Assembly (NCBI GenBank): GCA_963702095.1
Contig: OY969706.1
Location: forward strand, 704,001 to 768,000
Origin: Candidatus Bathyarchaeota archaeon
Lineage (GTDB): Archaea > Thermoproteota > Bathyarchaeia > Bathyarchaeales > Bathycorpusculaceae
DNA: 64,000 bases
Direction of reading: 5' to 3'
This document shows positions 22,379 to 52,085 of the stretch, piece by piece; positions within the stretch are counted from its first letter, which is position 1; every line of letters begins with the position of its first letter. Made by a program: the position numbers and the translations under genes. The notes under the pieces were generated by a model, which did not search any database, had not been told where the DNA came from, and saw nothing but the letters and a program-made list of their open reading frames with translations.

Positions 22379-23434
22379 GTGGTCGGAACCAGTAACGTTA
22401 CACTAATTTTTAAATTAAAGCGCTCAATCAGAGCAATTTCACCAGTAATCGCAACACTACTAATGATAGCCATAGCCGTCGTAGCCTCACTCGTAGTATA
22501 CGCATGGGTAAGCGGCTACATAGGCTTCCAAACCAACAAAGCAGGAGAATCCATATCACTGCCCAGCCTTGCAGGCGTAGTCCACACTGGAACAAACATT
22601 GGCGACTTGGTTGTTTACGTGCAAAACGTAGGACAGGGAACTGTTGAAGTCAGCGCGGTATACGTAGACGACACACTCATAGATGAAACTGATTTATCAT
22701 ACATCCCCGATCCTCCAGGCAACGTGATATCTGAAGGAAGCACCGTCGAAATAACAATAGATGGAAACTTCAACTTAGACGAACGCCACGACATCAAAGT
22801 AACCACCACCAGCGGCACATCCATGACATACACAGGCAAACCAGGCACAGGCGGCTCAGTTACTCCTGACGCATTGACCGCAAGCATCACTCCTGCAGAT
22901 TCATTAACTATGACTGCAGGTGAGACCCAGACTTTTACAGCTTCATCATCAGGTGGGACAGGCTCAAAATCATACCAGTGGTATTTGGACAACTCAGTTG
23001 TTTCCGGAGAAACCTCACTAACCTATACCTACACTGCCGCAACTGGTTCACATGATGTCTACGTGAAAGTAACCGACAGCGCATCTACTCCAGTGCAAAG
23101 GGATTCAAATACGGTTACAATTACTGTAAACTCTGCTTTGGTAGCTCCAACTATAAGTACTGACGATATTTTGCTTACCTCAGGGCAGATAGCGACTCTT
23201 ACATCTACTACTGTCAATACTGGCACATCACCTTATACGTATCAATGGCTGCGGATTGCCCCCGGAGAAACATCATATTCAGAAATCAGCGGTGCAACAT
23301 CAACCAGCTATTCCTTCGAGCACAGAAATAGCGCTCCTTTCACGGCCCACGGCTCATGGTACTTTATGCTTAAAGTAACCGATAGTAAAGGTGCTGTTGT
23401 AACTTCAAACACGGTTGCAATAGGGGTTGGCTAG
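22379..23434 (+). CDS. Archaeal type IV pilin-like adhesin with two Ig/PKD-like domains
   Basis: Class III signal KRSIRA|ISPVIATLLMIAIAVVASL; YVQNVGQG; KVTTTSGT...GKPG; YQW-type Ig domains. Confidence 0.85.
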   Translation: MVGTSNVTLIFKLKRSIRAISPVIATLLMIAIAVVASLVVYAWVSGYIGFQTNKAGESISLPSLAGVVHTGTNIGDLVVYVQNVGQGTVEVSAVYVDDTLIDETDLSYIPDPPGNVISEGSTVEITIDGNFNLDERHDIKVTTTSGTSMTYTGKPGTGGSVTPDALTASITPADSLTMTAGETQTFTASSSGGTGSKSYQWYLDNSVVSGETSLTYTYTAATGSHDVYVKVTDSASTPVQRDSNTVTITVNSALVAPTISTDDILLTSGQIATLTSTTVNTGTSPYTYQWLRIAPGETSYSEISGATSTSYSFEHRNSAPFTAHGSWYFMLKVTDSKGAVVTSNTVAIGVG

Positions 23435-23652
23435 TAAACTGTGAAACCAGTGTAGGTAAAGATAAGAGTCTTTACTGAGGATGCATCTCCTACTATCCCT
23501 ACTTTTCACTCAAAAATCGAGCTCTTTTTTATTCCAAACTCCTTAACGCAAGAAAATGGAATTTAAAGGATACATGATTCGGCCATTTACTTTTCCCTTT
23601 AAGCGTTCCTTTATCGCTAACTTTTTATCTAAACTTAGGCTATTATAAAAAT

Positions 23653-25698
23653 ATGTCAACCAAACGAAGACAGTTATCAAGCGTATTTTTGGTAATATTA
23701 TTCTTAACTTCCATTTGTCCCGTTCTACTGGTTCAGCCAGCAGATGCCGCCGTCACAGGCACCTTGGCTGATAACCTCAACAATATTATTAGTAACATAA
23801 ATTGGAATGCTGGCAACTCATGGACCACAAATTGGGCTATCATCCTTGCTAATAAAGAAACCACAGCATTTGATAATGCCATGACTCAGGATATTAGTCG
23901 TGGAGATTATATCGATGCTTTATACGTTGCAAGGTTAGCTCAGCTAAGCGGTTATTCATCAGACATAATCACTCAAGGCACTCAAGTAGCCCTACAACAA
24001 ATTAACATGTGTGGAACTCTACCTATAACCGTCAACGCCCACAGTTACGGAGACCCCGATATCCTAAACACCGGATGTTTTCTGGTCTACCACCGGTCTA
24101 TCCTTTGGGGATACGACTACGCCAAGAACTACGGGTTAGACGGTAAATGGAATGCACAACAAGCATTCAATAGTTTTGCAAACGCTTACAGCAAAAAACC
24201 AAGTGGAAGCGTCTCAGGCGAAATGCTCTGGATCGACCCACAAGAAAATTGGGCAAGATCATACAGCAGCCGCTATTACGATGAGCACGCAGAAACCTTG
24301 AGTACTTTTCTGAAGTTTGCAGAACAAGGCGTGCCAAACGCAATGACTTATGCTAGCAGTTCATGGACAGGCGTTCAGGCCCATTGGAACGGACAATACT
24401 ACGGCTACACCGGAACAACTACTGTCGAATGCGAAATGGGAAACTTTGCACAAGTAATTGCAGAATACAAGGACCAAAACGGAGGAACAATACCCTACTG
24501 GGATAGGGTAATTTCAGACTTAAACTACAAGCTGCTTGCAAACAGCTGGAGCTCACCCGGCTGGGCAAGTCCAGGAGTCATTATTCACGCTAAAGGAGTA
24601 AACAATGAACTCAGACTATGGGAAACCATGGGCGCAACCATTGCACTTCAAACACAATACCCCTACTTCACCACAATCATGAAAAGCAACTGGCAAAACA
24701 TGTTAAGCGGGTCTTCTCCTGCTTGGCAAGGATTAATGAATAGCGCCCTATACAGTGGAGGCTACTTTAGAGGAACCAGCTCAATCGCTGTATCAAATGA
24801 AGCCACCGTATGTGGTGCGGCAACATTATTCCTCGATGGCATTGTTCCAGTAACTGGAAACGTTAACATCCCTAACCGAGAAGAATTCTACAACGACCTA
24901 AGAACACCCTTTAGCGCCACCGACTTCAAATTTGACTACGCGAACCGCCAAATAACAATCCCCGTTAACGCAGGACAAATAACCTTCATTTACGGAACAA
25001 CCCCTGTCAGCTACAACTTCCCAACCAACGCAGTCTACAACATCCAATTCTCAAGCGACTGGAATACCATCACAGCAGTAAACGGAGCCGCAGTCACTCC
25101 AAATCCCCCCTCAGCACCACTCAACCTACAAGCAACCGCAGGCAACGCCCAAGTAACCCTCACCTGGTCAGCTCCGGCTTCAAATGGAGGCGCCCCAATA
25201 ACAAGTTACCAACTATACAAGAGCACACAATCAGGACAAGAAATACCCTTCATGACATTAGGAGTCACAACAACCTACACTGACACACAAGTAGCCAACG
25301 GTCAAACATACTACTACTATATCAAAGCAGTCAACTCAGCAGGCGAATCAACACCATCAAATGAAGCAAGTGCAACACCGACCGCTCCAAAAACCATGAC
25401 TGCAACAGTAACAACAGCCAAAACAACCTACGCCAGAGGTTCAACAGTCACAGGCTCAACAACCGTAAAAGACGCCACCCTAGCTATACCAATAGCGGGA
25501 GCCACCTCGACAGTTAGTGTAATCAACCCTAATGGAAAAGTAGCGTGGACAGGCAAAAGCACAACCGGCTTAGACGGAATCGCCGCTTTCTCCTACAAAT
25601 TACCTGCGAATGCACAAAGAGGCGTGTATACGGTAAAAGCAACAGTCTCATATACGGGCTACCCTACCGTCACAGCACAAACAACTTTTAAAGTGTAG
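23653..25698 (+). CDS. Secreted protein: large aromatic-rich N-domain, fibronectin type III domain and C-terminal Ig-like domain
   Basis: Signal peptide; PSAPLNLQATAGNAQVTLTWSAPASNGGAPITSY...AVNSAGES is FN3; Y.RG.TV...G.YTV Ig domain. Confidence 0.75.
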   Translation: MSTKRRQLSSVFLVILFLTSICPVLLVQPADAAVTGTLADNLNNIISNINWNAGNSWTTNWAIILANKETTAFDNAMTQDISRGDYIDALYVARLAQLSGYSSDIITQGTQVALQQINMCGTLPITVNAHSYGDPDILNTGCFLVYHRSILWGYDYAKNYGLDGKWNAQQAFNSFANAYSKKPSGSVSGEMLWIDPQENWARSYSSRYYDEHAETLSTFLKFAEQGVPNAMTYASSSWTGVQAHWNGQYYGYTGTTTVECEMGNFAQVIAEYKDQNGGTIPYWDRVISDLNYKLLANSWSSPGWASPGVIIHAKGVNNELRLWETMGATIALQTQYPYFTTIMKSNWQNMLSGSSPAWQGLMNSALYSGGYFRGTSSIAVSNEATVCGAATLFLDGIVPVTGNVNIPNREEFYNDLRTPFSATDFKFDYANRQITIPVNAGQITFIYGTTPVSYNFPTNAVYNIQFSSDWNTITAVNGAAVTPNPPSAPLNLQATAGNAQVTLTWSAPASNGGAPITSYQLYKSTQSGQEIPFMTLGVTTTYTDTQVANGQTYYYYIKAVNSAGESTPSNEASATPTAPKTMTATVTTAKTTYARGSTVTGSTTVKDATLAIPIAGATSTVSVINPNGKVAWTGKSTTGLDGIAAFSYKLPANAQRGVYTVKATVSYTGYPTVTAQTTFKV

Positions 25699-29975: not shown

Positions 29976-32024
29976 TTGGGAGAAGAGAAAATGAGAGAAA
30001 TAACCAAACTAAAACGCTCAGTAAAAGCAGTCTCACCAGTAATTTCAGTACTATTATTGATATCAATAGCTGTCGTAGCATCGCTTATCGCCTACGCCTG
30101 GGTCACAGGCTATATAGGCTTCCAAACAGACAAAGCAGGCAAACAAATACAAATACAAAGTTATGAACTTGGCAGCTCTATTATTTATGTCCAGAATACC
30201 GGCCAAGGCACTGTTCATCTAAAGCAAGATGGAAGCGTATACATTAACGACATACTAAAAACAATAAGTGAAGTGGATGGAGAGCCTCAGAAAAGTGGCA
30301 TAACTATCCCTATTGCTCCAGGGCAAACTGTAAAAGTATTAGTTAACTGTGATCCCTTAAAACCGGGCGACCGAATCAAAGTCGTAACAGTAGAAGGCAC
30401 ATCTATGGAAACCTCAGGCCACAACACTAGCAACGTATCCAATGGAAACGGAAACACCGGCGATTCAACTGCGCCAATAGTAAGCTTCAGTTTTACACCG
30501 ACAACACCTTCAATTGGAGAGACAGTTCAATTCACAGACACATCTACAGCTGGCAGTGGAAGCATCACCCATAGAACATGGAGCTTTGGCGATGGCTCAG
30601 TAACTAACGATAATCCAACCCCAACCCACGCCTATGATACAACTGGCACAAAAACAGTATCTCTAGCAGTCACCAATTCAAACGGCAAAGTAAGCACTAC
30701 TCAACAGACAATCACAATCTACGACTACGAGACGCCATCTGCAAGCTTTACCTTCACAGTAACTGGCACAAACGTTGAATTCCAAGATGCCTCAACGGCC
30801 GGCAGTGGAACCATAACACAATGGTCCTGGAGCTTTGGCACCGGTGCATCACCATCAACTAGCAACATTGCGAACCCAACGGTTTCTTACTCTAGCAATG
30901 GACAAAAAACTGTTACTTTAACAGTGACCAACTCACATGATAAGGCAGCCACAACCTCAAGAACCGTAAACATCGGCACAACAGCCGGAGGCGCTCCAAC
31001 AGCTGAATTTACAATATCAAACACTAACCCCTACCCAGGAGAAACAGTAACCTTCACCGATACATCTACAGCGGGAACCTCAGGCTCGATCAGCAGTCGA
31101 TCATGGAACTTTGGTGATGGCGGAACATCCACTGCACGAAACCCAACCCATGCATACACAACGCCAGGAGCAAAAACCGTAACCCTAACCGTTAGAGATA
31201 CCGATGGCCAAACAAGCACTGCAACACACACATTAACCGTGACTGACTATGTATCACCGATTGCAAACTTCATGTTTGACCCAGCATCCCCGATAATCAA
31301 CCAAGCAATAGCCTTCACAGATACTTCAACCGCTGGTTCGGGAACGATAAACCAGTATGCATGGACATTTGGCTCAGATGCATCACAACCAACAAGTACC
31401 GCTCGAAATCCAAACGGAATATCATACTCAACAAGCGGCGCAAAAACAGTAACATTAACCGTAACTGACTCCAACGGCAAGACAGGCACCATAACCCAAA
31501 CAATTCAAATTGGCACTTCAACAGTGGGACCAGAACCCGAGCTACTTAGCTCAAGCTTTGATGGCACAGACTGGGCAAGCGGATGGAACGATTCGCCAAA
31601 CCCCCCATGGTACCCAACAGCAACTGAAGGAAAAGACGGAACTCCAACTACAGCGGCAAAGTCCGACCCGCTCCAAAACAACGAAGGCGCATTCACCTGT
31701 AACGCCTTAGTCATTCCAGCAGGTACAAACGTCATTCACGTGAGCTTCGACTACAAGGTTCACTTCATAACAAACGGATACCTCAGACTATACTATTCGG
31801 GACTACCTAACGAAGATCAATACGACCCAACATTTACCTACACCGGTCTAAGTCTTACCGCGGCTAACACCGACAACGATGACTGGGGACACTATACCTT
31901 CGATATAACCGACCACAATGCCTTCACCAACACATTCAGATTCCGCTTCACCAGCAGTCTTTCATCAATTGACGGCGAACTTGAAACCGTAATCGTAGAC
32001 AACGTCGTCATAACATACGATTGA
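29976..32024 (+). CDS. Type IV pilin-like adhesin with four PKD domains and a C-terminal lectin-like domain
   Basis: KRSVKA|VSPVISVLLL; four F.D.S....W.FG....NP...Y...G.KTV.L.VT PKD repeats; ends VDNVVITYD. Confidence 0.88.
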   Translation: MGEEKMREITKLKRSVKAVSPVISVLLLISIAVVASLIAYAWVTGYIGFQTDKAGKQIQIQSYELGSSIIYVQNTGQGTVHLKQDGSVYINDILKTISEVDGEPQKSGITIPIAPGQTVKVLVNCDPLKPGDRIKVVTVEGTSMETSGHNTSNVSNGNGNTGDSTAPIVSFSFTPTTPSIGETVQFTDTSTAGSGSITHRTWSFGDGSVTNDNPTPTHAYDTTGTKTVSLAVTNSNGKVSTTQQTITIYDYETPSASFTFTVTGTNVEFQDASTAGSGTITQWSWSFGTGASPSTSNIANPTVSYSSNGQKTVTLTVTNSHDKAATTSRTVNIGTTAGGAPTAEFTISNTNPYPGETVTFTDTSTAGTSGSISSRSWNFGDGGTSTARNPTHAYTTPGAKTVTLTVRDTDGQTSTATHTLTVTDYVSPIANFMFDPASPIINQAIAFTDTSTAGSGTINQYAWTFGSDASQPTSTARNPNGISYSTSGAKTVTLTVTDSNGKTGTITQTIQIGTSTVGPEPELLSSSFDGTDWASGWNDSPNPPWYPTATEGKDGTPTTAAKSDPLQNNEGAFTCNALVIPAGTNVIHVSFDYKVHFITNGYLRLYYSGLPNEDQYDPTFTYTGLSLTAANTDNDDWGHYTFDITDHNAFTNTFRFRFTSSLSSIDGELETVIVDNVVITYD

Positions 32025-32109: not shown

Positions 32110-33018
32110 ATGAAGAACAAGCTATTCCTCAAAATATTTCTGGTTTTACTAATAGCCTCCCCCTTACTCATAGGATTCGGGCAAGCCCAAACTGCGGTAA
32201 TAGGGGTCGCAAAGGACGAAACATTTGATTACAACTATAACCTCAGTTGGGTCTCTTCAGACTCTCAAGCTACACCTCCCGCAATTTATCAAAAAATAAA
32301 TCAGACACAATCGATTGAACTCAAGATAACCGATGTATCTGGATCGATTGTATACATAGAAACTGTTAAGCACTACAAAAACGGAACTAGCACTTCTCAA
32401 AGTGGATATGTAAATGTTGATAATGGCGAAATTACTGTCCCATTTGGAAACCTCGTAATTAGCGCTAATCTTAATCCCAACGAACAATTGTATCCCTCTG
32501 GTGGCCATGCAATAATAGCTGATAGCTCGACTAGGACATATCCAAGCGGTCAAAGAGTGACTAACCACTATTTCTCTCAAACCAATAGCCAGGATGAATA
32601 TGAGAAAGTTGAGGTTTATTTCGATAAAGCAAAGGGTATAGCGGTTGATTATTCAAGCGAAACACGGGAAACCTCCGAAGCTATCACTACAAAATGGACT
32701 GAAACGCTGACAAATACGAATTCTGATGATTGGACCCGTTCACCCGAGGTTACTAGCACTTATACACCATCAGAAATTACATCCGCTACTACTTCTGCTA
32801 CTACCTCCGCAACAAGCTATCCAGTCAACACACAAGATTCATCTTGGGGAACCCAAACCGAAGATTCACCGCAATCATCTAACATCATATTGGTTATTGC
32901 AATTGTCTTGATTGTTATAGTTGCTGTATCGGTTCTTGCTTTGCGCGGCAGAAAGAACAAGCATACATCAAGTGTTGACAAAGATTTCGAAAAGTATCTA
33001 AAACCAAAAGCCTCCTAA
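32110..33018 (+). CDS. Secreted protein with Ser/Thr linker and C-terminal membrane anchor
   Basis: Signal peptide, S/T-rich linker, TM helix followed by RGRKNK. Confidence 0.75.
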   Translation: MKNKLFLKIFLVLLIASPLLIGFGQAQTAVIGVAKDETFDYNYNLSWVSSDSQATPPAIYQKINQTQSIELKITDVSGSIVYIETVKHYKNGTSTSQSGYVNVDNGEITVPFGNLVISANLNPNEQLYPSGGHAIIADSSTRTYPSGQRVTNHYFSQTNSQDEYEKVEVYFDKAKGIAVDYSSETRETSEAITTKWTETLTNTNSDDWTRSPEVTSTYTPSEITSATTSATTSATSYPVNTQDSSWGTQTEDSPQSSNIILVIAIVLIVIVAVSVLALRGRKNKHTSSVDKDFEKYLKPKAS

Positions 33019-33957: not shown

Positions 33958-34245
33958 CTAGGAGAGCAATACTGCTAGTTGCTTGTCCTCTTCAATTTGC
34001 AGTACCTGCTTCAATTCGCTAAAAACTTTTAGGGCGCTCAACCCTTTCTCAGATAGAGCATACACGACTCGCACTTTTTTAATAACCCGCTCCTCTACGA
34101 GCCTATTCTTAATAAGAAAGTCAAGACTCACTTTTAGGATGTTACAATTAATGTTAGATTTATACATTATATGAGTTATCTTGAGGGGACCACTGGATAA
34201 AACATTAAGAATGTCTAAATAGATTTCTAATTTAGAGCGTCTCAC
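33958..34245 (-). CDS. Archaeal winged-HTH protein (HTH_45-like)
   Basis: MRRSKLEIYLDIL...KITHIMYKSNIN...Y.LSEKG; start overlaps upstream stop (GTGA). Confidence 0.9.
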   Translation of the reverse strand: MRRSKLEIYLDILNVLSSGPLKITHIMYKSNINCNILKVSLDFLIKNRLVEERVIKKVRVVYALSEKGLSALKVFSELKQVLQIEEDKQLAVLLS

Positions 34246-34439
34246 TGAGATACTTCCACTAAAGGTATCATCTCAAAAATAAAGCTGGGTTGCTTTCTGG
34301 TATAAACAACAAGCCTATTTTCAAACGCCGTAACTAGATCATCGATTAAAATTTCCTGTACATACCTTGGAAGCCCCTTAATTTCTTGGCAGAGCGCTTG
34401 AGATATTTTTTCTTTTACAATCTTTCTGTTTTGTTTCAT
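34242..34439 (-). CDS. Small helical protein (ILIDDLVTAFENRL motif) translationally coupled to a wHTH gene
   Basis: 4-nt overlap with 33958..34245; two further paralogous copies in the window. Confidence 0.75.
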   Translation of the reverse strand: MKQNRKIVKEKISQALCQEIKGLPRYVQEILIDDLVTAFENRLVVYTRKQPSFIFEMIPLVEVSQ

Positions 34440-34608
34440 AAACTTTCACTTAGGGAGGATTACTGTTGAATAGACGCCAGTACATAATTCCTTTACGACT
34501 TCTAAATTCATATTGAGAAAACTTGTTAATTCTTGAATTCTGCATTCTTATTCCTGCTTCATAATTGATTAATAATCTAAACTTGACTAGTCTAAAGAGG
34601 ATAACCTT

Positions 34609-38095: not shown

Positions 38096-39613
38096 CTATG
38101 TGAGACCTGGAACGTAGGTCACTTCAACCCACACTTGAGTACACTCCGCATAGGACCAATATCCACCGTAACTACTAGTATATTGAGACCTGAGTTCAAC
38201 GCCGATCTGCAAAGCATTAATGTTTCCCCAAGTCCATTCTCCGCTTCCGAGGTTACCTGATTTAGTCGTGTAGTCAGTGTGGTAGTTTTGCCAACTGGTG
38301 GTCAGACTGATCGAACTACTGTCTTCTACGCTTCCTGTGCCAATTCTTAGTGCTGTTCTCGCTGAGACACTACTTTGATAATTGTTGTCTTCTTGACATC
38401 TGATGTAGATACCAACATTGGTGATCTTGCCAGTAAGTATCTGATCTGCAATGTTGTATGTGTCAGTCTGATAATTGTTGTCGCTATTGCCTCTAACGTA
38501 TGTTGTTGTGCCATCTGCTGTTTCCTCATCGACACGGTCCCAGTTTGCTGTGCCGGTTCCGCGCGGGTCCAAGTGGGTATCAGTTCCAACTGCATTTGGT
38601 CGAAGTGTTACTTTTGTAGCGAAGTTTGCTGTAACAGTGATTGATCCACTTGCGGCGTCGTCGATGTTCATTGTTGTTGATGCTGAAGTTGAACTGCCAA
38701 ATGTTACTGCGCCTGCCGGGCTACAGGTCCACGAATAGAATGTATTGCTGCCTGAGGGTGAAGCGACTATAGATATGCCTGTTTGACCAGCGTCGTATGA
38801 TTGCGGACTTGAGTTAGGGGTCGTTATTCCTCCTAGACTAACTTGGTTCACAGCGAAAGCCACTTGAACTGGAGTGGTAGCAGGTGTCACTTCTAGAGAT
38901 GCATAACCAACAATTGAAGAAACCGTAGCGGTTATGGTGTATCCGGTTCCAACGTCGCCTGCAGTCAGAGTGTTGCCTGAGAAACTTCCTCCATTACCAG
39001 AAACTGCCCAAGTAGTTGAAGAAGTAACATCCCAGTTTACAGAGCCATCAGTAGCAGTAGCGGTATAAGCTTGAGTTGTACCCGCCATAAGAGTAACAGA
39101 ATCTGGGGTAATAGTGATGCTTGTGGCGTCACCGTGAGCGGGGATTATAACAGTGCCGCCTGAGCCGGGTTTGCCTGTTGCACTCATAGATGTGCCGTCG
39201 GTTGTGGTAACTTTGATGTCATATCTTGTGTTAGGATCGTAAGCCTTGTCGTCTATTAGCAAGTCTACAGTGTTGCCTTCAGCAATTTGTTTGGATGTAT
39301 CAGTTGAGAAATCAGCTACCTGTTCACCATCTACATAAACAGCGCCAATCTGCACGGTTCCTTGCCCAACGTTCTGGACATAGACCACCATGTCATCGTC
39401 GTCGTTAACGGTAAAGCTAGGTAGAGCTATGGCGTTTCCGGTTTTGTCAGTTTGGAATCCGATGTAGCCGCTGACCCACGCGTAAACCACAAGGGACGCA
39501 ACAACTGCAATAGCAATCATAAGAAGCGTCGCTACAACAGGTGAAATTGCTCTAGTAGATCGTCGAAATTTAGTTACCACTCGAACATTACATTGTCTAA
39601 CCAATACTTTCAC
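38096..39613 (-). CDS. Type IV pilin-like adhesin with Ig-like stalk and jelly-roll tip
   Basis: RRSTRA|ISPVVATLLMIAIAVVASL; KVTTTDGT..GKPGSGG; C-terminal WT..NIN.L...VWVEVTY. Confidence 0.85.
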   Translation of the reverse strand: MKVLVRQCNVRVVTKFRRSTRAISPVVATLLMIAIAVVASLVVYAWVSGYIGFQTDKTGNAIALPSFTVNDDDDMVVYVQNVGQGTVQIGAVYVDGEQVADFSTDTSKQIAEGNTVDLLIDDKAYDPNTRYDIKVTTTDGTSMSATGKPGSGGTVIIPAHGDATSITITPDSVTLMAGTTQAYTATATDGSVNWDVTSSTTWAVSGNGGSFSGNTLTAGDVGTGYTITATVSSIVGYASLEVTPATTPVQVAFAVNQVSLGGITTPNSSPQSYDAGQTGISIVASPSGSNTFYSWTCSPAGAVTFGSSTSASTTMNIDDAASGSITVTANFATKVTLRPNAVGTDTHLDPRGTGTANWDRVDEETADGTTTYVRGNSDNNYQTDTYNIADQILTGKITNVGIYIRCQEDNNYQSSVSARTALRIGTGSVEDSSSISLTTSWQNYHTDYTTKSGNLGSGEWTWGNINALQIGVELRSQYTSSYGGYWSYAECTQVWVEVTYVPGLT

Positions 39614-39665
39614 ATCTCACTAAATTACAAATAGATATTCTACGTAGCGATAAGTTGATTTCATG

Positions 39666-39696
39666 TTATATAAAATTTCATAGAAGAATACTCTAT
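39666..39696 (-). promoter_or_regulatory. Pilin promoter: ATAGA-N7-TCTAT palindrome plus BRE/TATA
   Basis: Minus strand reads ATAGAGTATTCTTCTAT-GAAA-TTTTATATAA; conserved before three pilin genes. Confidence 0.75.
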
Positions 39697-41441: not shown

Positions 41442-43214
41442 CTAAGGAATATAGGTGACTTCTATGGGTATCCAATCGAGATTTATGGTATCAGCGCCGC
41501 CGCTTAGAACGTGTGTTACTTTGGCCTGGATCATGTTGCTATTTATGTTGCTGGTTGTCCAAGTTGTCCATTCTGTTACATCGACATAGAAATTGTTTGC
41601 ATCGGAGTTTGGCAAATTATAGGTATATGTGCTTGATAACCAAGTTGAACCGCCGTCTGCACTAACTTCTAGCAGTAGGTCATCGTTTCCCGGGGAGGAT
41701 ACGTAGGCGTCTAATCTTACACGTACTTGGGCAATGCTGGCACTTGAAGCAATTGTAAAGCCGTAACCGCTGTATGTGCAAGTATCCCCACCTGAACCAG
41801 ATGTAGCACGACCAGAACCATCTGAGTATGCTCTATATTCGTCAGTCCAAGCGCCTCCACTATCGGCTGTAGGTGATTTTGGATCAACGGTTGGGCTACG
41901 TACCTGAACGGTAGTGGTTGCTTCTGTTAAGCCTGTGGAAGTAGCGGTGAATGTCAAAGTTGCAGGAAGAGGATTTCCAGTCCAATAACCATAGTAGACA
42001 TTGACAGAGCTAGAATCGGCAGGCAGAGTGATACTAAATATTGCAGTGGTATCGCCTTTATGCGCATAGAAGTTGGCAAAGTTGACTCCGCCATCATCCA
42101 GATTTATCGTGATAGCGCCACCATTTGTTGTGGGATTGCCAGATGCGGTTTGTCTTTCAATAGTGAACAGTGTATTAACTCCAGCGGCTATCGGTGAAGG
42201 ATGCACAGTAAAGGCCAATTTTTCTGCAACTCCACTTGTCACTGTGAATGTTTCTGAGTCTGTACCTGAACTTGCATCAGTGGCTGAGACTACGTAGTCT
42301 TCGTTGGCGATAGTTGGGACGTTGAAAGTGCAGCTGAAAGCACCTGCCGCGCTTGTGGTGACAGATGATGGTGTAGTCGTCACGATTTCACTATTAAATC
42401 TAATAGTTATGGCTGAGGTAGCGGCGAAATTAGTGCCAGAGACAGTAACTGTTGTTCCTGATGAACCGGTTGCTGGGTTTAGAGTTATAGCTGGAGCTGC
42501 TGATACTGTGAATGTTTCTGAGTCTGTACCTGAACTTGAATCAGTGGCTGAGACTGCGTAAGCGCCATTAGCAGATGTTGGAACGTTGAAAGTACAACTG
42601 AATGCACCGCTTGCACTGGTTGTAACGCTTGTTGGAGCGGTTGTAACAACTGCACCGTTAAATCTGATTGTAATTGCCGAAGTAGCAGCAAAATTGGTGC
42701 CTGAAACTGTTACCGTTGTTCCAGAAAGACCGCTGGGGGGATTCAATGTAATGGCAGGAATAACCGTTACTGTTCCGCCTGAGCCTGGTTTCCCTGTTGC
42801 TGTCATGGATGTGCCATCGGTTGTGGTTACTTTAAGGTCGTATCTTGTGTCTTTATTGTATTGGCCTTCAACAGTTAATTCAGTAGTATCTCCTTCTCCA
42901 AGGACAGGATTACTGGTTGTAAAGGTTTTTTGTTCACCGTTTATGTACACTGCGCCGACTTCGGTTGTTCCCTGTCCAACGTTTTGAACATAGACAACCA
43001 TTCTGCCGTCATCAGCCACTGCAAAGCTGGGGATGGCTATGGCTTTTCCTGCGTTGCCTGTTTGGAAGCCTATGTAGCCGGCTACCCATGCGTATACTAC
43101 GAGTGAGGCGACTACGGCTATGGCTATCATTAGTAGGGTTGCGATTACTGGTGAGATTGCTTTTGCTGATCGTTTGAATTTTGTTGATAATCTTACGTTA
43201 TGTATTCTTGTCAA
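41442..43214 (-). CDS. Type IV pilin-like adhesin with two IPT/TIG-like repeats, an Ig domain and a jelly-roll tip
   Basis: KRSAKA|ISPVIATLLM; duplicated PAITLNP..G.SGTTVTVSGTNFAATSAITIRFN; ends LDWIPIEVTYIP. Confidence 0.88.
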   Translation of the reverse strand: MTRIHNVRLSTKFKRSAKAISPVIATLLMIAIAVVASLVVYAWVAGYIGFQTGNAGKAIAIPSFAVADDGRMVVYVQNVGQGTTEVGAVYINGEQKTFTTSNPVLGEGDTTELTVEGQYNKDTRYDLKVTTTDGTSMTATGKPGSGGTVTVIPAITLNPPSGLSGTTVTVSGTNFAATSAITIRFNGAVVTTAPTSVTTSASGAFSCTFNVPTSANGAYAVSATDSSSGTDSETFTVSAAPAITLNPATGSSGTTVTVSGTNFAATSAITIRFNSEIVTTTPSSVTTSAAGAFSCTFNVPTIANEDYVVSATDASSGTDSETFTVTSGVAEKLAFTVHPSPIAAGVNTLFTIERQTASGNPTTNGGAITINLDDGGVNFANFYAHKGDTTAIFSITLPADSSSVNVYYGYWTGNPLPATLTFTATSTGLTEATTTVQVRSPTVDPKSPTADSGGAWTDEYRAYSDGSGRATSGSGGDTCTYSGYGFTIASSASIAQVRVRLDAYVSSPGNDDLLLEVSADGGSTWLSSTYTYNLPNSDANNFYVDVTEWTTWTTSNINSNMIQAKVTHVLSGGADTINLDWIPIEVTYIP

Positions 43215-43285
43215 TTGTTTTTTCCCTTCTTTTCCCTAATTTTTATAACTAGTTTTTTACTTAGCGCTAGTTACATAGTCAGTGC

Positions 43286-43315
43286 TATATAAGAATTCAT
43301 AGAATAATGCTCTAT
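43286..43315 (-). promoter_or_regulatory. Pilin promoter: ATAGA-N7-TCTAT palindrome plus BRE/TATA
   Basis: Minus strand reads ATAGAGCATTATTCTAT-GAA-TTCTTATATA. Confidence 0.75.
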
Positions 43316-43564: not shown

Positions 43565-45088
43565 TTAGGAATATGATACCACTATAGCAAACAAATCATT
43601 GTAATGGAAATATTCATTGTCTAGATCTGGAGCGTTCACTCTTATGCGAATGTTTCCGGTGTTGTCGATGTAGTTACCGATGTTTGATACGATACTGAAA
43701 GAAAGTGATGTATCTGTGGTGCCGCTGATGCTTGTAGAATCTTTCTGCTCCCATTGGTGACTGTTAAAGTTATAGATATATAATGTCTGAGTTGCGGTTA
43801 TGCTTCCACCTGTAGCGGTTTGATAATGACCTTCCAGCGTTATGTCTAGTTTGGTCACTTGAGATTCTGTTATTTGGATGTCATCAATATCAAAAGTGCA
43901 GTAGTATTCGAGATTATTGTAAGTATAGTAACCGCCGCCAAACCAATTGCTATGCCAATCACGGTCACATCTAGATATGTAGTATACATTATTACTACTT
44001 TGCATATCAGTTCTTGAGCCACCAGTATTAGAACCAGCTGTATAGGCTGCATCTGCTTCCGGATATAGGGTTCCTTGCTGTGAGGCTGGTTTTACTGTTA
44101 GTTGTGCGGTATCAGATTTGCCAGAGTATGTTCCAGTTATAGTCCAGGTTCCATCATTATCTGAAGTATAGACGTTAGCTGCCCAAGAACCGCCAGCAGC
44201 GACATCCGCTTCCCAGTTTGCTGATGTGCTGACGTCCCAACTGTTTCCAACAGTATCATAGGCCATCATTGAATATGTTTGTGGGTCGCCTGAATCAATT
44301 TCGGCCGAGTCTGGAGATACGACGACGTGATCAAGGGTCCCGGTAGCAATGTGTAAAGCGGCAGTATCGGTTAAACCAGAGTAATCGCCTGTAACTGTCC
44401 AGTCGCCTGTGTTTGCAGAAGTGTAGACGTTTGCTGCCCATGAACCTCCAGCACCAGCAGTTATGCTCCAAGCTGTGAGCGAACTGACATCCCAATTGAC
44501 TGATCCGTCAGATGCGGTTGCTGTAAAAGTAACGGTATCGCCAGATAGAACTGAGGTCGTCTCGGGAGTGATTGATATACTTGTGGCATCACCATGAGCA
44601 GGGGTTCCATCGGAGCCGCCAGACCCTGGTTTGCCTGTTGCTGTTATGAATGTTCCGTCAGTTGTGGTAACTTTGATGTCATGTTTTTGGGTTAAATCGA
44701 AACTTCCAGCTATTGTTACTTCAACGGTATTTCCTTCCGGTATTACTTTACTTGGATCGTAAGCCAAATCATCATCAGCTATGAGTATATTGTCTACGTA
44801 TACGGCGCTGACTTCTACAGATCCTTGCCCAACATTTTGCACATAAACAACAAGACTACCAACATTCGGATTTTCTTCGCTAGCAACACTGGTGAGGCTT
44901 GGGATGTCTACGGCCGTTCCGGTTCTGCTGGTTTGAAAACCCATGTAGCCACTAATCCAGGCATAAGTTACAAGGGAGGCAACGACGACGATGGCAATCA
45001 TCAGAAGCGTTGCAATTACGGGTGATATCGCTCTAAAAGATCGCGGGAAATTTTTTGTTTTACTTTTTAAATTCAGGGTCTTTACAAC
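43565..45088 (-). CDS. Type IV pilin-like adhesin with two Ig-like repeats and beta-sandwich tip; start codon uncertain
   Basis: Frame open upstream of ATG 45001 through PRSFRA|ISPVIATLL; GGSWAANVYTS repeats. Confidence 0.8.
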   Translation of the reverse strand, partial: VVKTLNLKSKTKNFPRSFRAISPVIATLLMIAIVVVASLVTYAWISGYMGFQTSRTGTAVDIPSLTSVASEENPNVGSLVVYVQNVGQGSVEVSAVYVDNILIADDDLAYDPSKVIPEGNTVEVTIAGSFDLTQKHDIKVTTTDGTFITATGKPGSGGSDGTPAHGDATSISITPETTSVLSGDTVTFTATASDGSVNWDVSSLTAWSITAGAGGSWAANVYTSANTGDWTVTGDYSGLTDTAALHIATGTLDHVVVSPDSAEIDSGDPQTYSMMAYDTVGNSWDVSTSANWEADVAAGGSWAANVYTSDNDGTWTITGTYSGKSDTAQLTVKPASQQGTLYPEADAAYTAGSNTGGSRTDMQSSNNVYYISRCDRDWHSNWFGGGYYTYNNLEYYCTFDIDDIQITESQVTKLDITLEGHYQTATGGSITATQTLYIYNFNSHQWEQKDSTSISGTTDTSLSFSIVSNIGNYIDNTGNIRIRVNAPDLDNEYFHYNDLFAIVVSYS

Positions 45089-45149
45089 TTTTAATTTTAT
45101 CCCCTCGTTTTTTTCATATTCTTTTCCAAGCGTTAACTAACTTTATGAC

Positions 45150-45178
45150 TTATAAAATTTCATAGAACAATACTCTAT
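45150..45178 (-). promoter_or_regulatory. Pilin promoter: ATAGA-N7-TCTAT palindrome plus BRE/TATA
   Basis: Minus strand reads ATAGAGTATTGTTCTAT-GAAA-TTTTATAA. Confidence 0.75.
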
Positions 45179-45265: not shown

Positions 45266-46390
45266 ATGGACCTTTCAAGCATTCGTATAAGAGAACATTT
45301 TGGATTACTCTCAAATGATAGTCACATTTCACAATTTACTTTTCTTGTCAGCCCCCCAAAAAACCGCTCAGGGATAGAAAAAAACGACTATGTACTGGTT
45401 GATCACCCTCTTTTGGGCGAAGCATGTCAGATCTTAGCGATAATCGCAGACATAGCCAGCTATGAAGAAATCGCAGGTTCCACTATAAACGAACGAAAGG
45501 GAAAGATGCTAGCCACCGCCCAAGTAATCGGCAGCATAGACCTAAAAAAAGACAACAAACCATTAAAGGAAGTTTTAGTTCCGCCAAACCCAGGTTCCCG
45601 CGTCTATATACCCCTAAAAAGCTTCCTGCAAGATATCCTCAACCGCAACCTCAAAGGTGAAGCCTACAAAAAACCCATAGAGGTCGGCACTTTAGAGGGC
45701 TCCTCAGTAGAAGAGCAGAACAGCAGCGGCGCCATCCCCTGCTTCCTCGATGCAGAAGACCTCCTAAATAAGCATACAATAATTACTGGCGTAGGCGGCA
45801 TAGGGAAGACGCACATCAGCAGATGGCTGGCAAAAGCAATGGCCAAAAAAACATCGGCTAAAATAGTTGTTTTTGATTCTTACCGCGAATACGTCAATAC
45901 CTTGAACGAAGATGCCTCAACGACTGCTCTGACGTCTAAAATAGATAAGGACTCAATTGCTAAAGCAATCAAAAATCAACTCACAATTCTAGATGCGTCT
46001 AAGCTTTCAGCTGAAGAGAGACCTTCCTGCTACATGGACTGGCTGCAGCAATTGCTGAAGTACAAATCCGATGCAAAAATTGGGCCGGTTATTGTGATCG
46101 TGGAAGAAGCGGAAAGTCTAGATAGAGACAAATTAAATCAAGTAGTTGCCGAAGGAAGAAAGAGAGGCGTTTTTCTTATCCTCACAGCATCGCATCCTAG
46201 CGATTTGGGGGGGAAAATCCTGTCGCAGATGGGCAATCAGATTATAGGCAGAACAACAGATCCTACAGACATTGAGTGCCTAGTCAACATGTCAGGAACC
46301 GAGAAAACATCACTTTCTAATTTAGTTCTTGGCGAGTGGATAATTAACGGAATAAATGCTAGCAGACCAATGAAAATGCATATCGGCTAA
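45266..46390 (+). CDS. HerA/DUF87-like ATPase with N-terminal HAS-barrel
   Basis: PPNPGSRVY; HTIITGVGGIGKT (Walker A); VVFDSYREY; IVEEAE (Walker B); EGRKRG. Confidence 0.8.
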   Translation: MDLSSIRIREHFGLLSNDSHISQFTFLVSPPKNRSGIEKNDYVLVDHPLLGEACQILAIIADIASYEEIAGSTINERKGKMLATAQVIGSIDLKKDNKPLKEVLVPPNPGSRVYIPLKSFLQDILNRNLKGEAYKKPIEVGTLEGSSVEEQNSSGAIPCFLDAEDLLNKHTIITGVGGIGKTHISRWLAKAMAKKTSAKIVVFDSYREYVNTLNEDASTTALTSKIDKDSIAKAIKNQLTILDASKLSAEERPSCYMDWLQQLLKYKSDAKIGPVIVIVEEAESLDRDKLNQVVAEGRKRGVFLILTASHPSDLGGKILSQMGNQIIGRTTDPTDIECLVNMSGTEKTSLSNLVLGEWIINGINASRPMKMHIG

Positions 46391-46486: not shown

Positions 46487-46917
46487 ATGGCTAAACCAAC
46501 TAAACGCTCTAAACGTAGTAAAATCATAATTGCTGGTATTGTCTGTGCAGCAATCCTAATCGGGGTAACTATAGGCTTCGCCGCTTATTATGCCAGCCAA
46601 ATAATGCGGCCACACAAGATACTGTTGTGCCTAAACTGGTAGGTGTCGACTTGCAACTTAACGATGACAGAACAGATGCTCATGCACCATTCTTACATAT
46701 AACTGGAACAGTTCATAACGAAGGCAACGGCACCGCAAACAATGTAACAATCACTGTTTATGCGATTCAAGGTGAGAATACAACCGCTATCGATGTAACT
46801 CAAAACATAGCCGATTCAATCGAAGCCGGAGCAGATTTTCCCCTCAACTTATCACTAAGCTATACTGGAGAAGCACTATCAGCATTTAACGAACCCCAAT
46901 TTGCATGGACAAATTAA
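46487..46917 (+). CDS. Membrane-anchored small Ig-like protein; frameshift near 46600
   Basis: Basic N-terminus plus TM, then ITGTVHNEGNGTANNVTITV in the next frame; one A apparently missing in caaataat. Confidence 0.65.
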
Positions 46918-47133: not shown

Positions 47134-47628
47134 TTAAGATGGGCAATAAGTACTAACAGTAACTCCTAAGGTATTTAAGACAGTACAAGTGAGCGCTCCT
47201 TCTATCTTATAGTGAACATTCAGTGAATCTGCCGTAACGTAGTCAATACCGTCATCGTCAACTTCTATACTTGTACTTGTACTAGAAAATCTTATGATGA
47301 CCGATCTACCAGCTTGTACATGTACTCCAGTTCCGTCGGGATTGACCAAGTTAGCATATAGATGACGCTGCTGATTAGTTTTCTCAACAATCCATATTCT
47401 CGACAAATCAATATCCATTTTAGTAGCGGTTAGTGTTATAGTACCCGAATCGTAGCTTATGTCCATTTGGGCATTAACTTTTTTTGTATATAATTCGTTC
47501 ATTTCTTTTGTTGCAGCGTCATGCCAAAGGTAAACGTTAGTGAAGAAAAACATCAAAATAATTATGAACATTACTGAGCCTACTACTTCTGCTGTGCCCT
47601 TTTTATTTTTTAACAGTTTTTTCAACAT
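47134..47628 (-). CDS. Minor type IV pilin-like protein
   Basis: KNKKG|TAEVVGSVMFIIILMFFF class III signal; last gene of the pilus operon. Confidence 0.75.
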   Translation of the reverse strand: MLKKLLKNKKGTAEVVGSVMFIIILMFFFTNVYLWHDAATKEMNELYTKKVNAQMDISYDSGTITLTATKMDIDLSRIWIVEKTNQQRHLYANLVNPDGTGVHVQAGRSVIIRFSSTSTSIEVDDDGIDYVTADSLNVHYKIEGALTCTVLNTLGVTVSTYCPS

Positions 47629-47640
47629 GTTTTTTCCTCA

Positions 47641-48102
47641 CTATGGTGTTGCTTCAAAACTTGAACCCATTTTAGTTGCAATGGTGAAAGTTGGAGTTGA
47701 ACCTATTGAATTCGCCCCCATATTCCAGAAAATAGTAAAGCTTTTGTGCTCTCCAACTGGTATTTTTATATCTAAATTAAAGTCATTACTAACTGGAGAG
47801 CTTGTTAATTTCAAACTCAAACCATTTAAATAGACAGAGGTTATTTCGGAATCAACTTTACCAGAATTATAGACAGATATTTGCACTGGTATTGGACCAT
47901 TAGTTGTGCCAGTCGGATTTATCCAAATATCTTCAACAGTTAACACCTCTCTGACTGAACCACCTACGCCTGCCTTATAAGCATCAGAATAGGCTGTTAC
48001 GAATGCAAAGAGCAGTGTCATACCTATCATCGTAACTAAGATCATGAGCACGGTTGCTATCACAGGGGAAACTGCACGTCTATTTTGTCGTAGTCGCCTC
48101 AT
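47641..48102 (-). CDS. Type IV pilin (minor)
   Basis: NRRA|VSPVIATVLMILVT; VYNSG...I.SVYLNG. Confidence 0.85.
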   Translation of the reverse strand: MRRLRQNRRAVSPVIATVLMILVTMIGMTLLFAFVTAYSDAYKAGVGGSVREVLTVEDIWINPTGTTNGPIPVQISVYNSGKVDSEITSVYLNGLSLKLTSSPVSNDFNLDIKIPVGEHKSFTIFWNMGANSIGSTPTFTIATKMGSSFEATP

Positions 48103-48106
48103 CTTT

Positions 48107-48958
48107 TCACATCCATCCTGGCGGTATCGCCGCGAAGAAAACAGCGTACCCTGCCACTAGTAGTAAGATTGAATGTTTCATGCCGCTTGCAACTCGGCGT
48201 TCACCGATTTTTCCAGCCATCAAGCCACCTGTTAATGCTGAAACAATCATGAATTGGTAAAAGAATTCCTTAAAGTTGCTGGTACCGCCTCCAGGGGCTA
48301 GAGTGCTAATAACGTCCTGTGAACCTTGAAGAGGCGCAAAGAATGAGCTAACAAGTAAAATAGCTGTAACTATGAATACTGCGAATGAAGCGTATATTAC
48401 AACGATGTAGGGTTTCATTTGGGCGTTGGTGTCTCGGTCTATTTCTTTCATTTCTTCCATGAACCCGGATGTTGCTGTGAAGACTTTTTTGATTGTTCCT
48501 CCTGAGTGGCTGGCTTCTAAGACGAGAACGCAGAAGCGGTTTACGATTGGCGAGTTTATGTTGTTTTTAAAGTTGGTTAATGCATTCTCAAATGAGGTGC
48601 CCCAGGACATTTGGACGACCATTTGTTTAACTTCCTTAGCAAGGGGTCCACTGACCATTTTGTTATCGACAACTTTCTCTAAGGCTTTTGTTAGAGTCAT
48701 GCCAGTTTCTTGTGATTCAGCGACTCCTCTAACTAGAAGGGGCATTTGATCTTCTATTGCAGATAGCCATCTTTGGTGCTTAAAATCTAAAATGGTAGAT
48801 GGCACCAGGATAATGAGTATACTAGCAAAGAAGATTTCGTTTATGTAAGTAGCCAAAGCTGAAGGGGATGCTATTGCGACCACTATTATCATTACTAGAA
48901 CTGCTGCAAAGGATGCGCCGAGTGTTAGTTTCTTGGTTTTTGTTAAGATTTTGCCCAT
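48107..48958 (-). CDS. TadC/T2SS-F family pilus assembly membrane protein
   Basis: Q.PLLVR.VAE..ETGMTL..AL, MSWG.SF..AL..F and GL.AGKI motifs. Confidence 0.9.
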   Translation of the reverse strand: MGKILTKTKKLTLGASFAAVLVMIIVVAIASPSALATYINEIFFASILIILVPSTILDFKHQRWLSAIEDQMPLLVRGVAESQETGMTLTKALEKVVDNKMVSGPLAKEVKQMVVQMSWGTSFENALTNFKNNINSPIVNRFCVLVLEASHSGGTIKKVFTATSGFMEEMKEIDRDTNAQMKPYIVVIYASFAVFIVTAILLVSSFFAPLQGSQDVISTLAPGGGTSNFKEFFYQFMIVSALTGGLMAGKIGERRVASGMKHSILLLVAGYAVFFAAIPPGWM

Positions 48959-48963
48959 GCTTT

Positions 48964-49845
48964 TTACCTCGGAGGAGTCATTGAATCAACAAGGAGTAAC
49001 ATAATCATTACTCCAGCAGGAGTAACAATAAATGTCATCAGTAACATGACAGTTTCAGGGTCTAAGCCACCGAAAACTCCCAGTCCTCCGCCCAAAAAAG
49101 ACATAACCGAAAGCATGACTACGAGCACCAGTGGCAGGGCAATCATGAAGCTGACATACATTTCAGCCATGCCCGCTAAACTATCTAGGAAGCTCTTCAT
49201 CGAGGTGACACGAGCTTTCTTGAATTTATCGGCTTCGTCCCGGAGATAGGCTGCCAAGTCGCCGCCCATATGTGAAGTTGTCACGATACCCTCTAGTAAT
49301 GCACCGAATTTTCTTGAAGCAGACCTGTTTGCAGCTCGTTTTAATGAGTCGTTTAAATCCAAGCCCATAATTTCAGTGTCAGCAATTGCTCGCCGCACTT
49401 CTTCTCCCACGCCGAATTCATCGCCGACATTTGCCAAAGACCTAAATATTCGTTCAGGAGGCATACCTGAGCTTGCTAGTACTGACAAAAAGTTAGCCGT
49501 TAGGGGGAGGTTAGCATCTATTTTTCGAACCTTAGAAGAGATTGTGAGAGAGGGGTATAGATAAAAAACGCCAAAAGAGGAAATGCCAGCAACTAAACCG
49601 GCAACTATGGAGAAAATAATCGCAGCTGCGATTGACGAAGTATTTGACATAATTAAAAAAAAGATTGCAAAACCTACGCCTGTAACTAGGATGGTGGCAA
49701 GCGCCATCAAACCCAAATACGCTTCAAAAGTGATTTTAATGGCAGCTTTAGAAATATTATCCTGCAGACTTTTCAGTTCTTTGACAAGAGAAGCGGGAAC
49801 AAGCTTTGAGGCTCTAAGACAGAGGGAAAGCAGCCGCTTATTCGT
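48964..49845 (-). CDS. TadB/TadC (T2SS-F) pilus assembly membrane protein; likely start is ACG at 49845
   Basis: IDANLP....LSVLASSG, GLDL..SL and GGDL..YL motifs; frame open 43 codons upstream of the ORF-track start, GGAGG SD. Confidence 0.88.
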   Translation of the reverse strand, partial: TNKRLLSLCLRASKLVPASLVKELKSLQDNISKAAIKITFEAYLGLMALATILVTGVGFAIFFLIMSNTSSIAAAIIFSIVAGLVAGISSFGVFYLYPSLTISSKVRKIDANLPLTANFLSVLASSGMPPERIFRSLANVGDEFGVGEEVRRAIADTEIMGLDLNDSLKRAANRSASRKFGALLEGIVTTSHMGGDLAAYLRDEADKFKKARVTSMKSFLDSLAGMAEMYVSFMIALPLVLVVMLSVMSFLGGGLGVFGGLDPETVMLLMTFIVTPAGVMIMLLLVDSMTPPR

Positions 49846-51520: not shown

Positions 51521-51608
51521 CTCAACGTTTCCCCCTCATACATTCATGCTCTTCCTTAATAAATCATAAATAAAAAAAGGATTTACCAAAACAATTCATC
51601 TTTACTGT

Positions 51609-52085
51609 TTACTGTATTGTGAATTGCTTGGTGACTTCTGCGAAGGTTCCGCTTTGAGCAACAACTTTGATTGTGACTTGTTGTACGCCGTCACTTAGTT
51701 GTGCTGTTGAACCTGGTGTTTGGGCAGTCAAAGTTGCTGTCTCTTGCTTGAGTATATTGCCGCTATTTGGTAGGGTAGCAGTCGCTAATACACCGTTGAT
51801 GTAAATGCTGGTAATTTTTACGTCAGAGTCACCAACATTTTGGACATAAACAGTAAAATTATCTGTAGCGTCATTAGCTATGGTAGCGTTTCCATTGTAA
51901 ACTATGCTTTGCACTTGTATACCTTGACCTGTTTTTTCTGTTTGGAAGCTCATATATCCCATGACCCAAGCGTAGGTCACTAGAGATGCAACGACTGCAA
52001 TGGCGATCATAAGTAAGGTAGCGATAACTGGTGAAATTGCACCCATATTTCTACGGAACTTTCGAATGTTTTTTCCTATATTCAT
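51609..52085 (-). CDS. Probable major type IV pilin
   Basis: MNIGKNIRKFRRNMGA|ISPVIATLLMIAIAVVASL; first gene of operon; no passenger domain; ggag SD. Confidence 0.85.
   Translation of the reverse strand: MNIGKNIRKFRRNMGAISPVIATLLMIAIAVVASLVTYAWVMGYMSFQTEKTGQGIQVQSIVYNGNATIANDATDNFTVYVQNVGDSDVKITSIYINGVLATATLPNSGNILKQETATLTAQTPGSTAQLSDGVQQVTIKVVAQSGTFAEVTKQFTIQ

Follow-up and report, generated by a model that had tools for sequence, protein, structure and literature searches.

Modular type IV pilins of a Bathyarchaeia archaeon that probably diversify by exchange of parts among related genes

Abundant in anoxic sediments and soils, Bathyarchaeia have hardly been cultured. Why would a genome of this group hold, beside a single pilus operon, five long pilin genes that begin alike and end differently? 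The genes lie in a stretch of 64,000 nucleotides (nt), hereafter the window, at positions 704001-768000 of a Candidatus Bathyarchaeota genome (G000:C1:704001-768000) that consists of a single 2.94-Mb contig and is rated 90% complete. A preliminary description of the window proposed that the five pilins carry swappable C-terminal passengers, that one pilus machine serves them all, and that the DNA at the head-passenger junction is a recombination hinge. Based on comparisons across the genus, we consider it probable that the five are type IV pilins of modular build, that related genes trade these parts, with homologous recombination or gene conversion as the likely means, and that the products are predicted minor, adhesive subunits of a pilus. 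The shuffling operates on an evolutionary scale, with no on/off switch demonstrated.

Five long pilins with one N-terminal module

The five long pilins (A to E) and the short pilin F were borne out, with open reading frames (ORFs) at 22379 (A), 29976 (B), 38096 (C), 41442 (D), and 43565 (E). The shared N-terminal module, put at roughly 140 amino acids (aa), measures 135 to 149 aa, with 40 to 69% pairwise identity across A to F. Behind it stand stalks of immunoglobulin-like (Ig), PKD, or related domains and, in most cases, a tip.

22379..23434, plus strand: long pilin A, 351 aa, GTG start; module 22415-22855; two Ig/PKD-like domains, no jelly-roll tip
29976..32024, plus strand: long pilin B, 682 aa; module 30009-30434, of another subfamily; four PKD domains; tip 31512-32021
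38096..39613, minus strand: long pilin C, 505 aa, GTG start; module 39155-39568; GGSW/Big-type Ig and InlB-B-like Ig; tip ∼38099-38623
41442..43214, minus strand: long pilin D, 590 aa, TTG start; module 42774-43178; PGS-type Ig repeats 42241-42768; tip ∼41445-41894
41907..42234, minus strand: third stalk domain of D, with a DNA match to the last domain of a pilin in a relative (G126)
43565..45091 (5' end approximate), minus strand: long pilin E; module 44615-45049; two GGSW-type Ig domains; tip ∼43568-44092

Over their first 53 aligned residues, the long pilins are 58 to 70% identical to F. All six proteins exceed the cut-off of the NCBIfam model for archaellin/type IV pilin N termini (TIGR02537; 28 to 38 bits versus 20), in keeping with a class III signal and a hydrophobic N-terminal helix. 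A profile of the module matches the Pyrobaculum calidifontis pilin 8fk7 over nearly its whole length (E value, 5.9e-15; residues 5 to 137). As originally noticed, the module closes with GKPG(S/T)GG in A, C, D, and E and not in B.

The start assigned to E by the ORF finder (45001) falls within the signal helix, the module itself starting at ∼45049, and no in-frame ATG, GTG, or TTG occurs ahead of the signal peptide; possible causes are a sequencing error within a run of A's, decay, or the use of an unusual start. In D, an Ig domain of 264 nt is duplicated (copies 72% identical) and followed by the third Ig-like domain. Four times in the genome, a palindrome stands before a TATA-like box. C, D, and E each have one of these promoter-like elements upstream, which fits separately expressed genes.

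39660..39696, minus strand: palindrome and TATA-like element upstream of C
43279..43315, minus strand: palindrome and TATA-like element upstream of D
45142..45178, minus strand: palindrome and TATA-like element upstream of E

The pilin family is present in 44 of 120 genomes of the genus (E value, ≤1e-28). From 71 fetched stretches plus the window we obtained 105 near-complete modules belonging to 43 genomes; the passenger is at least 100 aa long in 65 modules, at most 25 aa in 35, and intermediate in 5. Passenger sizes run from about 100 to 1,670 aa (maximum, 1,667 aa), and at least ten C-terminal families recur. Long pilins number one to five per genome in 36 genomes, the usual order among relatives being short pilin, ATPase, platform proteins, minor pilin G, and long pilins. 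In a quick tree, A, C, D, and E form one clade with one gene from G058 (SH-aLRT [Shimodaira-Hasegawa-like approximate likelihood ratio test], 99), B belongs to another subfamily, and most short pilins cluster together (SH-aLRT, 93). A GKP linker was found in 5 of the 105 genome-derived modules; of 116 close homologues that were parsed, 24 have it, including the window's own four. GKPG is a clade-specific marker.

Exchange of passengers

We pooled 120 of the 196 homologues of D's module with the genome set and parsed 165 of the resulting 170 proteins. Thirty-five pairs have modules at least 90% identical; the passenger is shared in full in 11 of them, in part in 16, and not at all in 8. Grouping these into 19 independent groups, we found that the whole passenger differs in 7, part of it differs in 7, and it is kept in 5. 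The proteins P0003 and P0004, for example, have modules 97.8% identical and diverge directly past the GKPG linker. In P0008, the closest relative of C (91%), divergence sets in at this point too, and the protein includes a domain with 73% identity to the third domain of D; the closest module to that of A (P0035; 84%) bears a tip 76% identical to E's. Conversely, the last Ig domain and tip of C are 69% identical to those of P0079, although the two modules are only 51% alike.

On a tree of 63 long-pilin modules, with 10 tip families assigned to 50 rows and eight labels corrected for frameshifts, tip family changes 22 times against a possible minimum of 9. The approximately unbiased (AU) test rejected four of five tip families as clades of pilin modules, with family 7 not rejected (P = 0.077). 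The preliminary description had named congruent trees with fixed domain pairings as the mark of static paralogues; module and tip trees are instead incongruent and the pairings vary, as expected of exchangeable passengers.

Single domains also move. The third stalk domain of D shares 86% DNA identity (287/334) with the last domain of the G126 pilin and occurs only in these 2 of the 120 genus genomes, whose pilus ATPases share 71% protein identity, which points to exchange between lineages or to a common donor. Two adjacent paralogues at a relative's locus (L125) are identical over 21 successive 45-nt windows (∼945 bases), a stretch that starts at the linker and ends in the tip's first strand, while their heads (42 to 80%) and tips (22 to 67%) differ; an identical stalk between unlike heads and tips suggests recent exchange within one genome. 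As judged from these comparisons, exchange occurs both between paralogues of one genome and between lineages. It is frequent but not constant, and its rate differs by subfamily. Pairs with the same tip family within one genome numbered 0 of 40 versus 3.7 expected, with counterexamples outside the set (the sixth long pilin of G000, and L125), and we draw no conclusion from this.

Breakpoints and the GKPG junction

At least four classes of breakpoint can be distinguished: the end of the helix block, the last hairpin of the head together with the linker, the end-strands of Ig domains, and the first strand of the tip. Two paralogues in G092 share a 155-nt helix block at 98.7%, and the identity of many pairs stops there. 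A gene of G107 is a mosaic: from -401 to -7 it resembles a G092 gene (89.9%), and from -50 to +261 it resembles a G046 gene (86.6%), the two parts overlapping in the block of the last hairpin and linker. Mosaicism also marks the module of A, whose 5' end resembles D and whose head resembles E (max-chi P = 2e-4 for one of the five triplets tested). Tip swaps begin after an Ig end-strand, and whole-passenger swaps begin within ∼20 codons of the junction.

In the structural model of C, the junction singled out by the preliminary description corresponds to the last beta-hairpin of the pilin head and a low-confidence linker.

39155..39229, minus strand: last head beta-hairpin plus GKPG linker in C (equivalents: A, 22781-22855; D, 42774-42848; E, 44615-44689)

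Crossovers do map to this end of the module, as had been suggested, but it is one of at least four breakpoint classes; the GKPG junction is a frequent crossover zone with no fixed DNA site. When the junctions of A, C, D, and E are compared, 79 of the 114 codons for shared residues are identical versus 42 expected (the pairs are not independent), and the longest exact matches there are 11 to 22 nt. The further idea of a special recombination-hinge DNA had to be abandoned: genus-wide, junction codons are free to vary, every hinge position using several synonymous codons, and the excess codon identity in long pilins (0.13 to 0.24) is no higher than in short pilins without a passenger (0.31). Since a swap must keep the export signal, breaks would gather at the junction by selection alone.

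Stalks and predicted folds

The five stalks, described as all different, are mostly distinct, but the first stalk domain is common to C and E (47% over 90 aa). GGSW-type Ig domains like those of C and E also build non-pilin surface proteins at 25810 and 12426-14047. These two loci, 12426-14047 and 25810-28644, are copies of one GGSW-Ig surface protein (87% DNA identity), the former being split in two ORFs and missing ∼1.1 kb of repeats. Two degenerate 170-nt copies (36532-36697 and 37545-37714; 76%) look like remains of Ig-domain coding sequence.

Mature C was modeled by AlphaFold from 33 sequences (mean predicted local distance difference test [pLDDT] score, 77; predicted template modeling score, 0.49). 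The model shows a helix (residues 3 to 25), a head, the low-confidence linker (130 to 139), two Ig domains, and a tip. Its head is a beta-sandwich that superimposes on 8fk7 (Z, 11.3; root mean square deviation [rmsd], 2.2; 90 aligned). Extra folded modules follow C-terminal to the pilin moiety, as in modular pilins. The first Ig domains match LigA (Z, 11.1; rmsd, 5.8). With the whole model, the top long matches from Foldseek, including Bacteroides SGBP-B, have rmsd values of 21 to 29 Å and were read as shared architecture only.

Lectin-like beta-sandwich tips had been ascribed to four of the pilins, and the two tips modeled, those of B and C, bear this out as jelly rolls. The C tip resembles allantoicase, Fbs1, and CBM32-type sandwiches (Z, 8.6 to 9.5), with a galactose-binding-domain-like jelly roll. 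The B tip (pLDDT, 80) matches reelin, MAM domains, the gingipain K1 adhesin, and CBM61 (Z, 12.0 to 14.8). Both are predicted to be jelly-roll sandwiches of the MAM/CBM-like kind. Jelly-roll folds of these kinds bind glycans or proteins in other settings. PDB sequence searches with profiles of the B and C tips gave no matches, and Atlas searches with the D and E tips returned unnamed clusters only (scores, 0.93 to 0.96; low recognition values).

Pfam searches of 30 of 58 relatives' passengers identified PKD, InlB-B, Big_3, He_PIG/cadherin, F5/8 type C, polysaccharide deacetylase, and, weakly, MAM domains. A long pilin of G126 (L060:12462-14423) has two F5/8 type C domains in its passenger and one of G008 (L039:11700-12437) has a polysaccharide deacetylase domain, suggesting that enzymes can also ride on these pilins.

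The pilus operon and its neighbors

The operon is encoded on the minus strand in the order short pilin F, assembly ATPase, two platform proteins, minor pilin G, and pilin-like protein H. Beyond H come a HerA-like gene on the plus strand and then E, D, and C on the minus strand; A and B lie further along on the plus strand.

52322..52981, plus strand: KaiC-like ATPase, divergent from the operon; homologues in 37 genomes (including G000)
51609..52085, minus strand: short pilin F, heading the operon and likely the major pilin; TIGR02537
49838..51520, minus strand: assembly ATPase; T2SSE, FlaI-like, under the archaellum cut-off
48964..49716, minus strand: platform protein 1; T2SSF/TadC-like
48107..48958, minus strand: platform protein 2; T2SSF/TadC-like
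47641..48102, minus strand: short minor pilin G; Pilin_N
47134..47628, minus strand: pilin-like protein H, N terminus class III-like by eye, no family match; homologues in 38 genomes (including G000)
46627..46917, plus strand: small CARDB-like ORF; homologues in 25 genomes (including G000)
45266..46390, plus strand: short HerA-like ATPase, between the operon and the long pilins; homologues in the fetched loci of 39 genomes (including G000)
32110..33018, plus strand: membrane-anchored-looking protein following B; homologues in the fetched loci of 19 genomes (including G000)

The closest relatives of the window's pilus ATPase are 65 to 91% identical to it, in records labeled Bathyarchaeota or Bathyarchaeia and, in one case, Thermoproteota. 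The genome has one prepilin peptidase (PF06847, at G000:1680570), which completes, with the ATPase and platform proteins, the set that defines an archaeal type IV pilus system. One ATPase and one TadB/C set is a correct count for the window, whereas the genome as a whole has three type II/IV secretion ATPases. By hand count, the pilin family occurs in 34 of 39 genomes with a platform orthologue versus 10 of 81 others (kin are not independent), and several of those 10 show other operon genes. Co-location and co-occurrence indicate that a single pilus machine likely serves all five long pilins. Several pilins sharing one ATPase/platform pair are known from Haloferax PilA1-6 (PMC4858521). Short pilins start with ATG in 28 of 32 cases, whereas TTG or GTG is the sole start nearby in 33 of 65 long pilins, which suits a minor-subunit role of the latter. 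Candidatus Bathyarchaeum tardum, an enrichment culture, carries the operon and one long pilin of 353 aa (L148).

A sixth long pilin lies 1.3 Mb away in G000, frameshifted at the junction and near remnants of a second operon copy; it too is followed by a homologue of the 32110..33018 protein. The remnant (G000:C1:2102188-2111754; L101) comprises a platform fragment and homologues of G and H, and a fragment of a C-type tip lies directly upstream of the frameshifted pilin. Two more type IV filament loci with pilin-like genes of their own occur at G000:C1:1635326-1643446, where the ATPase is split over two ORFs, and at G000:C1:1681649-1692435, next to the prepilin peptidase, where one protein bears a family 3 tip.

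Weighing the explanations

The explanation that we favor would run as follows. Each long pilin would consist of a signal helix, a pilin head, a linker, a string of Ig domains, and a jelly-roll tip. Related genes would exchange parts by general homologous recombination or gene conversion at short conserved blocks that encode beta-strands, the engine presumably being RadA-type general recombination, and selection would keep the export signal at the front of the recombined genes. The products would be cleaved by the genome's single prepilin peptidase and built at low copy, beside F, into the pilus of the neighboring operon, where the tips may bind glycans or proteins. Partners, substrates, or viruses could supply the diversifying pressure.

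Several observations weigh against this explanation. DNA identity between the window's paralogues is 66 to 85%, and no exact match exceeds 27 nt, which is short for efficient homologous recombination. Tip labels retain some tree signal, the 22 changes comparing with a mean of 31.9 (minimum, 27) for shuffled labels, and in 16 of 17 pairs from genus genomes whose modules are ≥86% identical, the passengers are still largely homologous, many of these pairs coming from one conservative subfamily. Frameshifts in the assemblies of many relatives' genes blur the tip counts. The genome has two other pilus-type ATPases, a shared jelly-roll fold reveals no ligand, and electron microscopy of Ca. B. tardum is reported to have shown no pili (PMC10477458).

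That last report also suits a reading in which shuffling is real and the long proteins are stand-alone surface or S-layer-associated adhesins, their class III signal merely a membrane anchor; so do the largest passengers, too bulky for a pilus shaft, and the occurrence of the same Ig types in the window's non-pilin surface proteins. We regard this as unlikely, because the long proteins retain the entire pilin head rather than the helix alone, stay close to F over their first 53 aligned residues, and are encoded by genes that adjoin and co-occur with the operon.

We accord a low probability to a dedicated diversification machine in which the pilus and its conserved HerA-like ATPase would import DNA from neighboring cells and drive frequent gene conversion among the pilin genes, giving Bathyarchaeia populations a repertoire of pilus heads, stalks, and tips that changes within generations as in antigenic variation. 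It is somewhat harder still to credit directed diversification, in which the HerA-like ATPase and the pilus bring neighbors' DNA into these genes and shuffling is the function of the locus. The location of the HerA-like gene between the operon and the long pilins and the movement of single domains between lineages are compatible with it, as are weak matches of the 374-aa protein to HerA, CedD, and CedB models, but these matches score 27 to 57 bits against cut-offs of 600 to 970. The protein is also short, has a variable P-loop, and diverges faster than the pilus ATPase (35 to 61% identity among near-full-length homologues versus 68 to 88%).

A programmed, shufflon-like switch, with a site-specific recombinase swapping passengers at GKPG within a cell population and perhaps inverting the A/B segment, seems very improbable. 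The start of whole-passenger swaps near the junction, the excess of identical junction codons among A, C, D, and E, and the placement of A and B on the strand opposite to C, D, and E, inside an inverted repeat, could be read in its favor. Against it, G000 (90% complete) yielded no match to resolvase (PF00239) or reverse transcriptase (PF00078; the control matched in 3 of 14), and its seven integrase hits (PF00589) all lie outside the window and have no homologue in the fetched loci. Junction codons vary freely, and each passenger has its own signal and head; we found no cassette arrays or silent C-terminal segments. Tip homology was found in 90 ORFs: 53 belong to pilins, and most of the remaining 37 either continue a frameshifted pilin or code for other large surface proteins. 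The locus therefore lacks what defines a shufflon, namely, a linked invertase, fixed short sites, and one expressed gene with silent segments.

The inverted repeat in question is 204 nt long (20491-20693 and 34314-34517; 95% identical), has only these two copies in the genome, and brackets A and B while lying outside the pilin genes. The small ORF that it encodes lies ahead of a winged-helix gene (33958-34245). Its role as an invertible element was rejected, the second copy being a partial copy of the small ORF and upstream DNA with no linked recombinase; the repeat may mark an old inversion. A diversity-generating retroelement was also rejected, given the lack of PF00078 matches and of any near-identical passenger template in the genome.

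Static paralogues with quickly diverged passengers, or assembler chimeras at repeated modules, would fit the several swap pairs that come from short metagenome contigs and the subfamilies that keep their passenger, but are scarcely credible: at domain borders, identity falls from >70% to none, domains with 86 to 95% DNA identity turn up after different heads, mosaics also stand on long contigs (G000, 2.94 Mb; G126, 784 kb; L125, 801 kb), and the exact matches between G000 paralogues are at most 27 nt.

Other features of the window

A dispersed repeat at ∼39798-39975, with 72 further matches in G000 at an E value of ≤1e-6 (∼45 to 235 nt; 67 to 85% identity), is possibly a MITE-like (miniature inverted-repeat transposable element-like) element or a small RNA; Rfam gave no match in 19000-56000, which includes it. 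The gene for an Lrp/AsnC regulator (21246-21812) has a 98.6% identical copy 1.1 Mb away (G000:C1:1846236-1846794). By eye, 448-8258 and 14304-15150 encode several proteins that look secreted and have Pro/Thr linkers, collagen-like repeats, or lectin-like domains; glycosyltransferases are encoded beside them, and the window as a whole looks like a wider cell-surface island.

Significance and comparison with known systems

On sequence grounds, the long pilins are a concrete candidate for the means by which Bathyarchaeia attach to particles or partners. They provide a catalogue of at least ten recurring C-terminal families on a predicted pilus, two with modeled jelly-roll folds, and recombination would give the archaeon's pili a fast-changing set of predicted sticky ends. 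Ca. B. tardum offers an enrichment culture in which the operon and a long pilin are present together. In the literature that we searched, mostly outside subscription journals, no title or abstract describes shuffled modular pilins in Bathyarchaeia or other archaea.

In gene content and order, the machinery resembles type IV filament (T4F) subsystem 4A, or Aap-like, pili, with an ATPase, two platform genes, pilins, and downstream accessory genes (PMC13705601, PMC4858521), and subsystem 4A has been reported in Bathyarchaeota (PMC13705601). The adhesin described for 4A/B (PMC13705601) is PilY-like (arCOG03511), as opposed to the pilin-fused string of Ig domains found here. We found no mention of domain shuffling in these accounts, although the supplements of PMC13705601 may list such loci, and PMC13705601 uses neither of the terms HerA and KaiC.

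In architecture, the closest parallel is with PilB and PilC of Streptococcus sanguinis, which likewise join a class III signal and pilin moiety to C-terminal Ig or lectin-like modules, and for which a tip location and a role in adhesion have been proposed (PMC9934059). As described, that system is bacterial and has two genes and a short stalk, in contrast to up to five genes per locus, extensive reassortment, and predicted adhesins in Bathyarchaeia. The PilV shufflon of IncI1/I2 plasmids also combines a constant pilin N terminus with alternative adhesive C termini (PMC5430464, 10.1101/2024.10.25.620183); it does so through one gene with invertible segments, sfx sites, and the Rci invertase, whereas the window holds complete separate genes with no fixed site or linked recombinase.

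The mode of variation is nearer to that of VARTIG in Thermococcales, where archaeal Ig surface proteins are hypervariable through recombination between lineages, patchily distributed, and without a nearby integrase (PMC8416519). The long pilins share this inter-lineage recombination of Ig domains with no linked integrase. In the VARTIG account (PMC8416519), however, one distal Ig domain varies and small downstream genes act as donors; here, the carrier is a type IV pilin beside a pilus operon, head, stalk, and tip are all affected, exchange also joins paralogues of the same genome, and no such small-gene arrays were found. Neither the large Ig protein of arCOG07710 with its downstream small Ig genes nor the host order Thermococcales applies to a pilin carrier in Bathyarchaeia. 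By analogy, the variation of long pilins appears to work like VARTIG without being a member of it. Mosaic PKD-repeat proteins of Methanosarcinales, also clustered Ig/PKD surface genes that recombine into new combinations, differ in not being described as pilins in that account (PMC8416519). The VARTIG study could not map breakpoints, according to its authors (PMC8416519); they can be mapped here, which makes the mechanism of archaeal Ig-domain shuffling testable. The combinatorial diversification of pilins at this locus is real and well supported, and it unites an architecture and a mode of variation that are separately known elsewhere.

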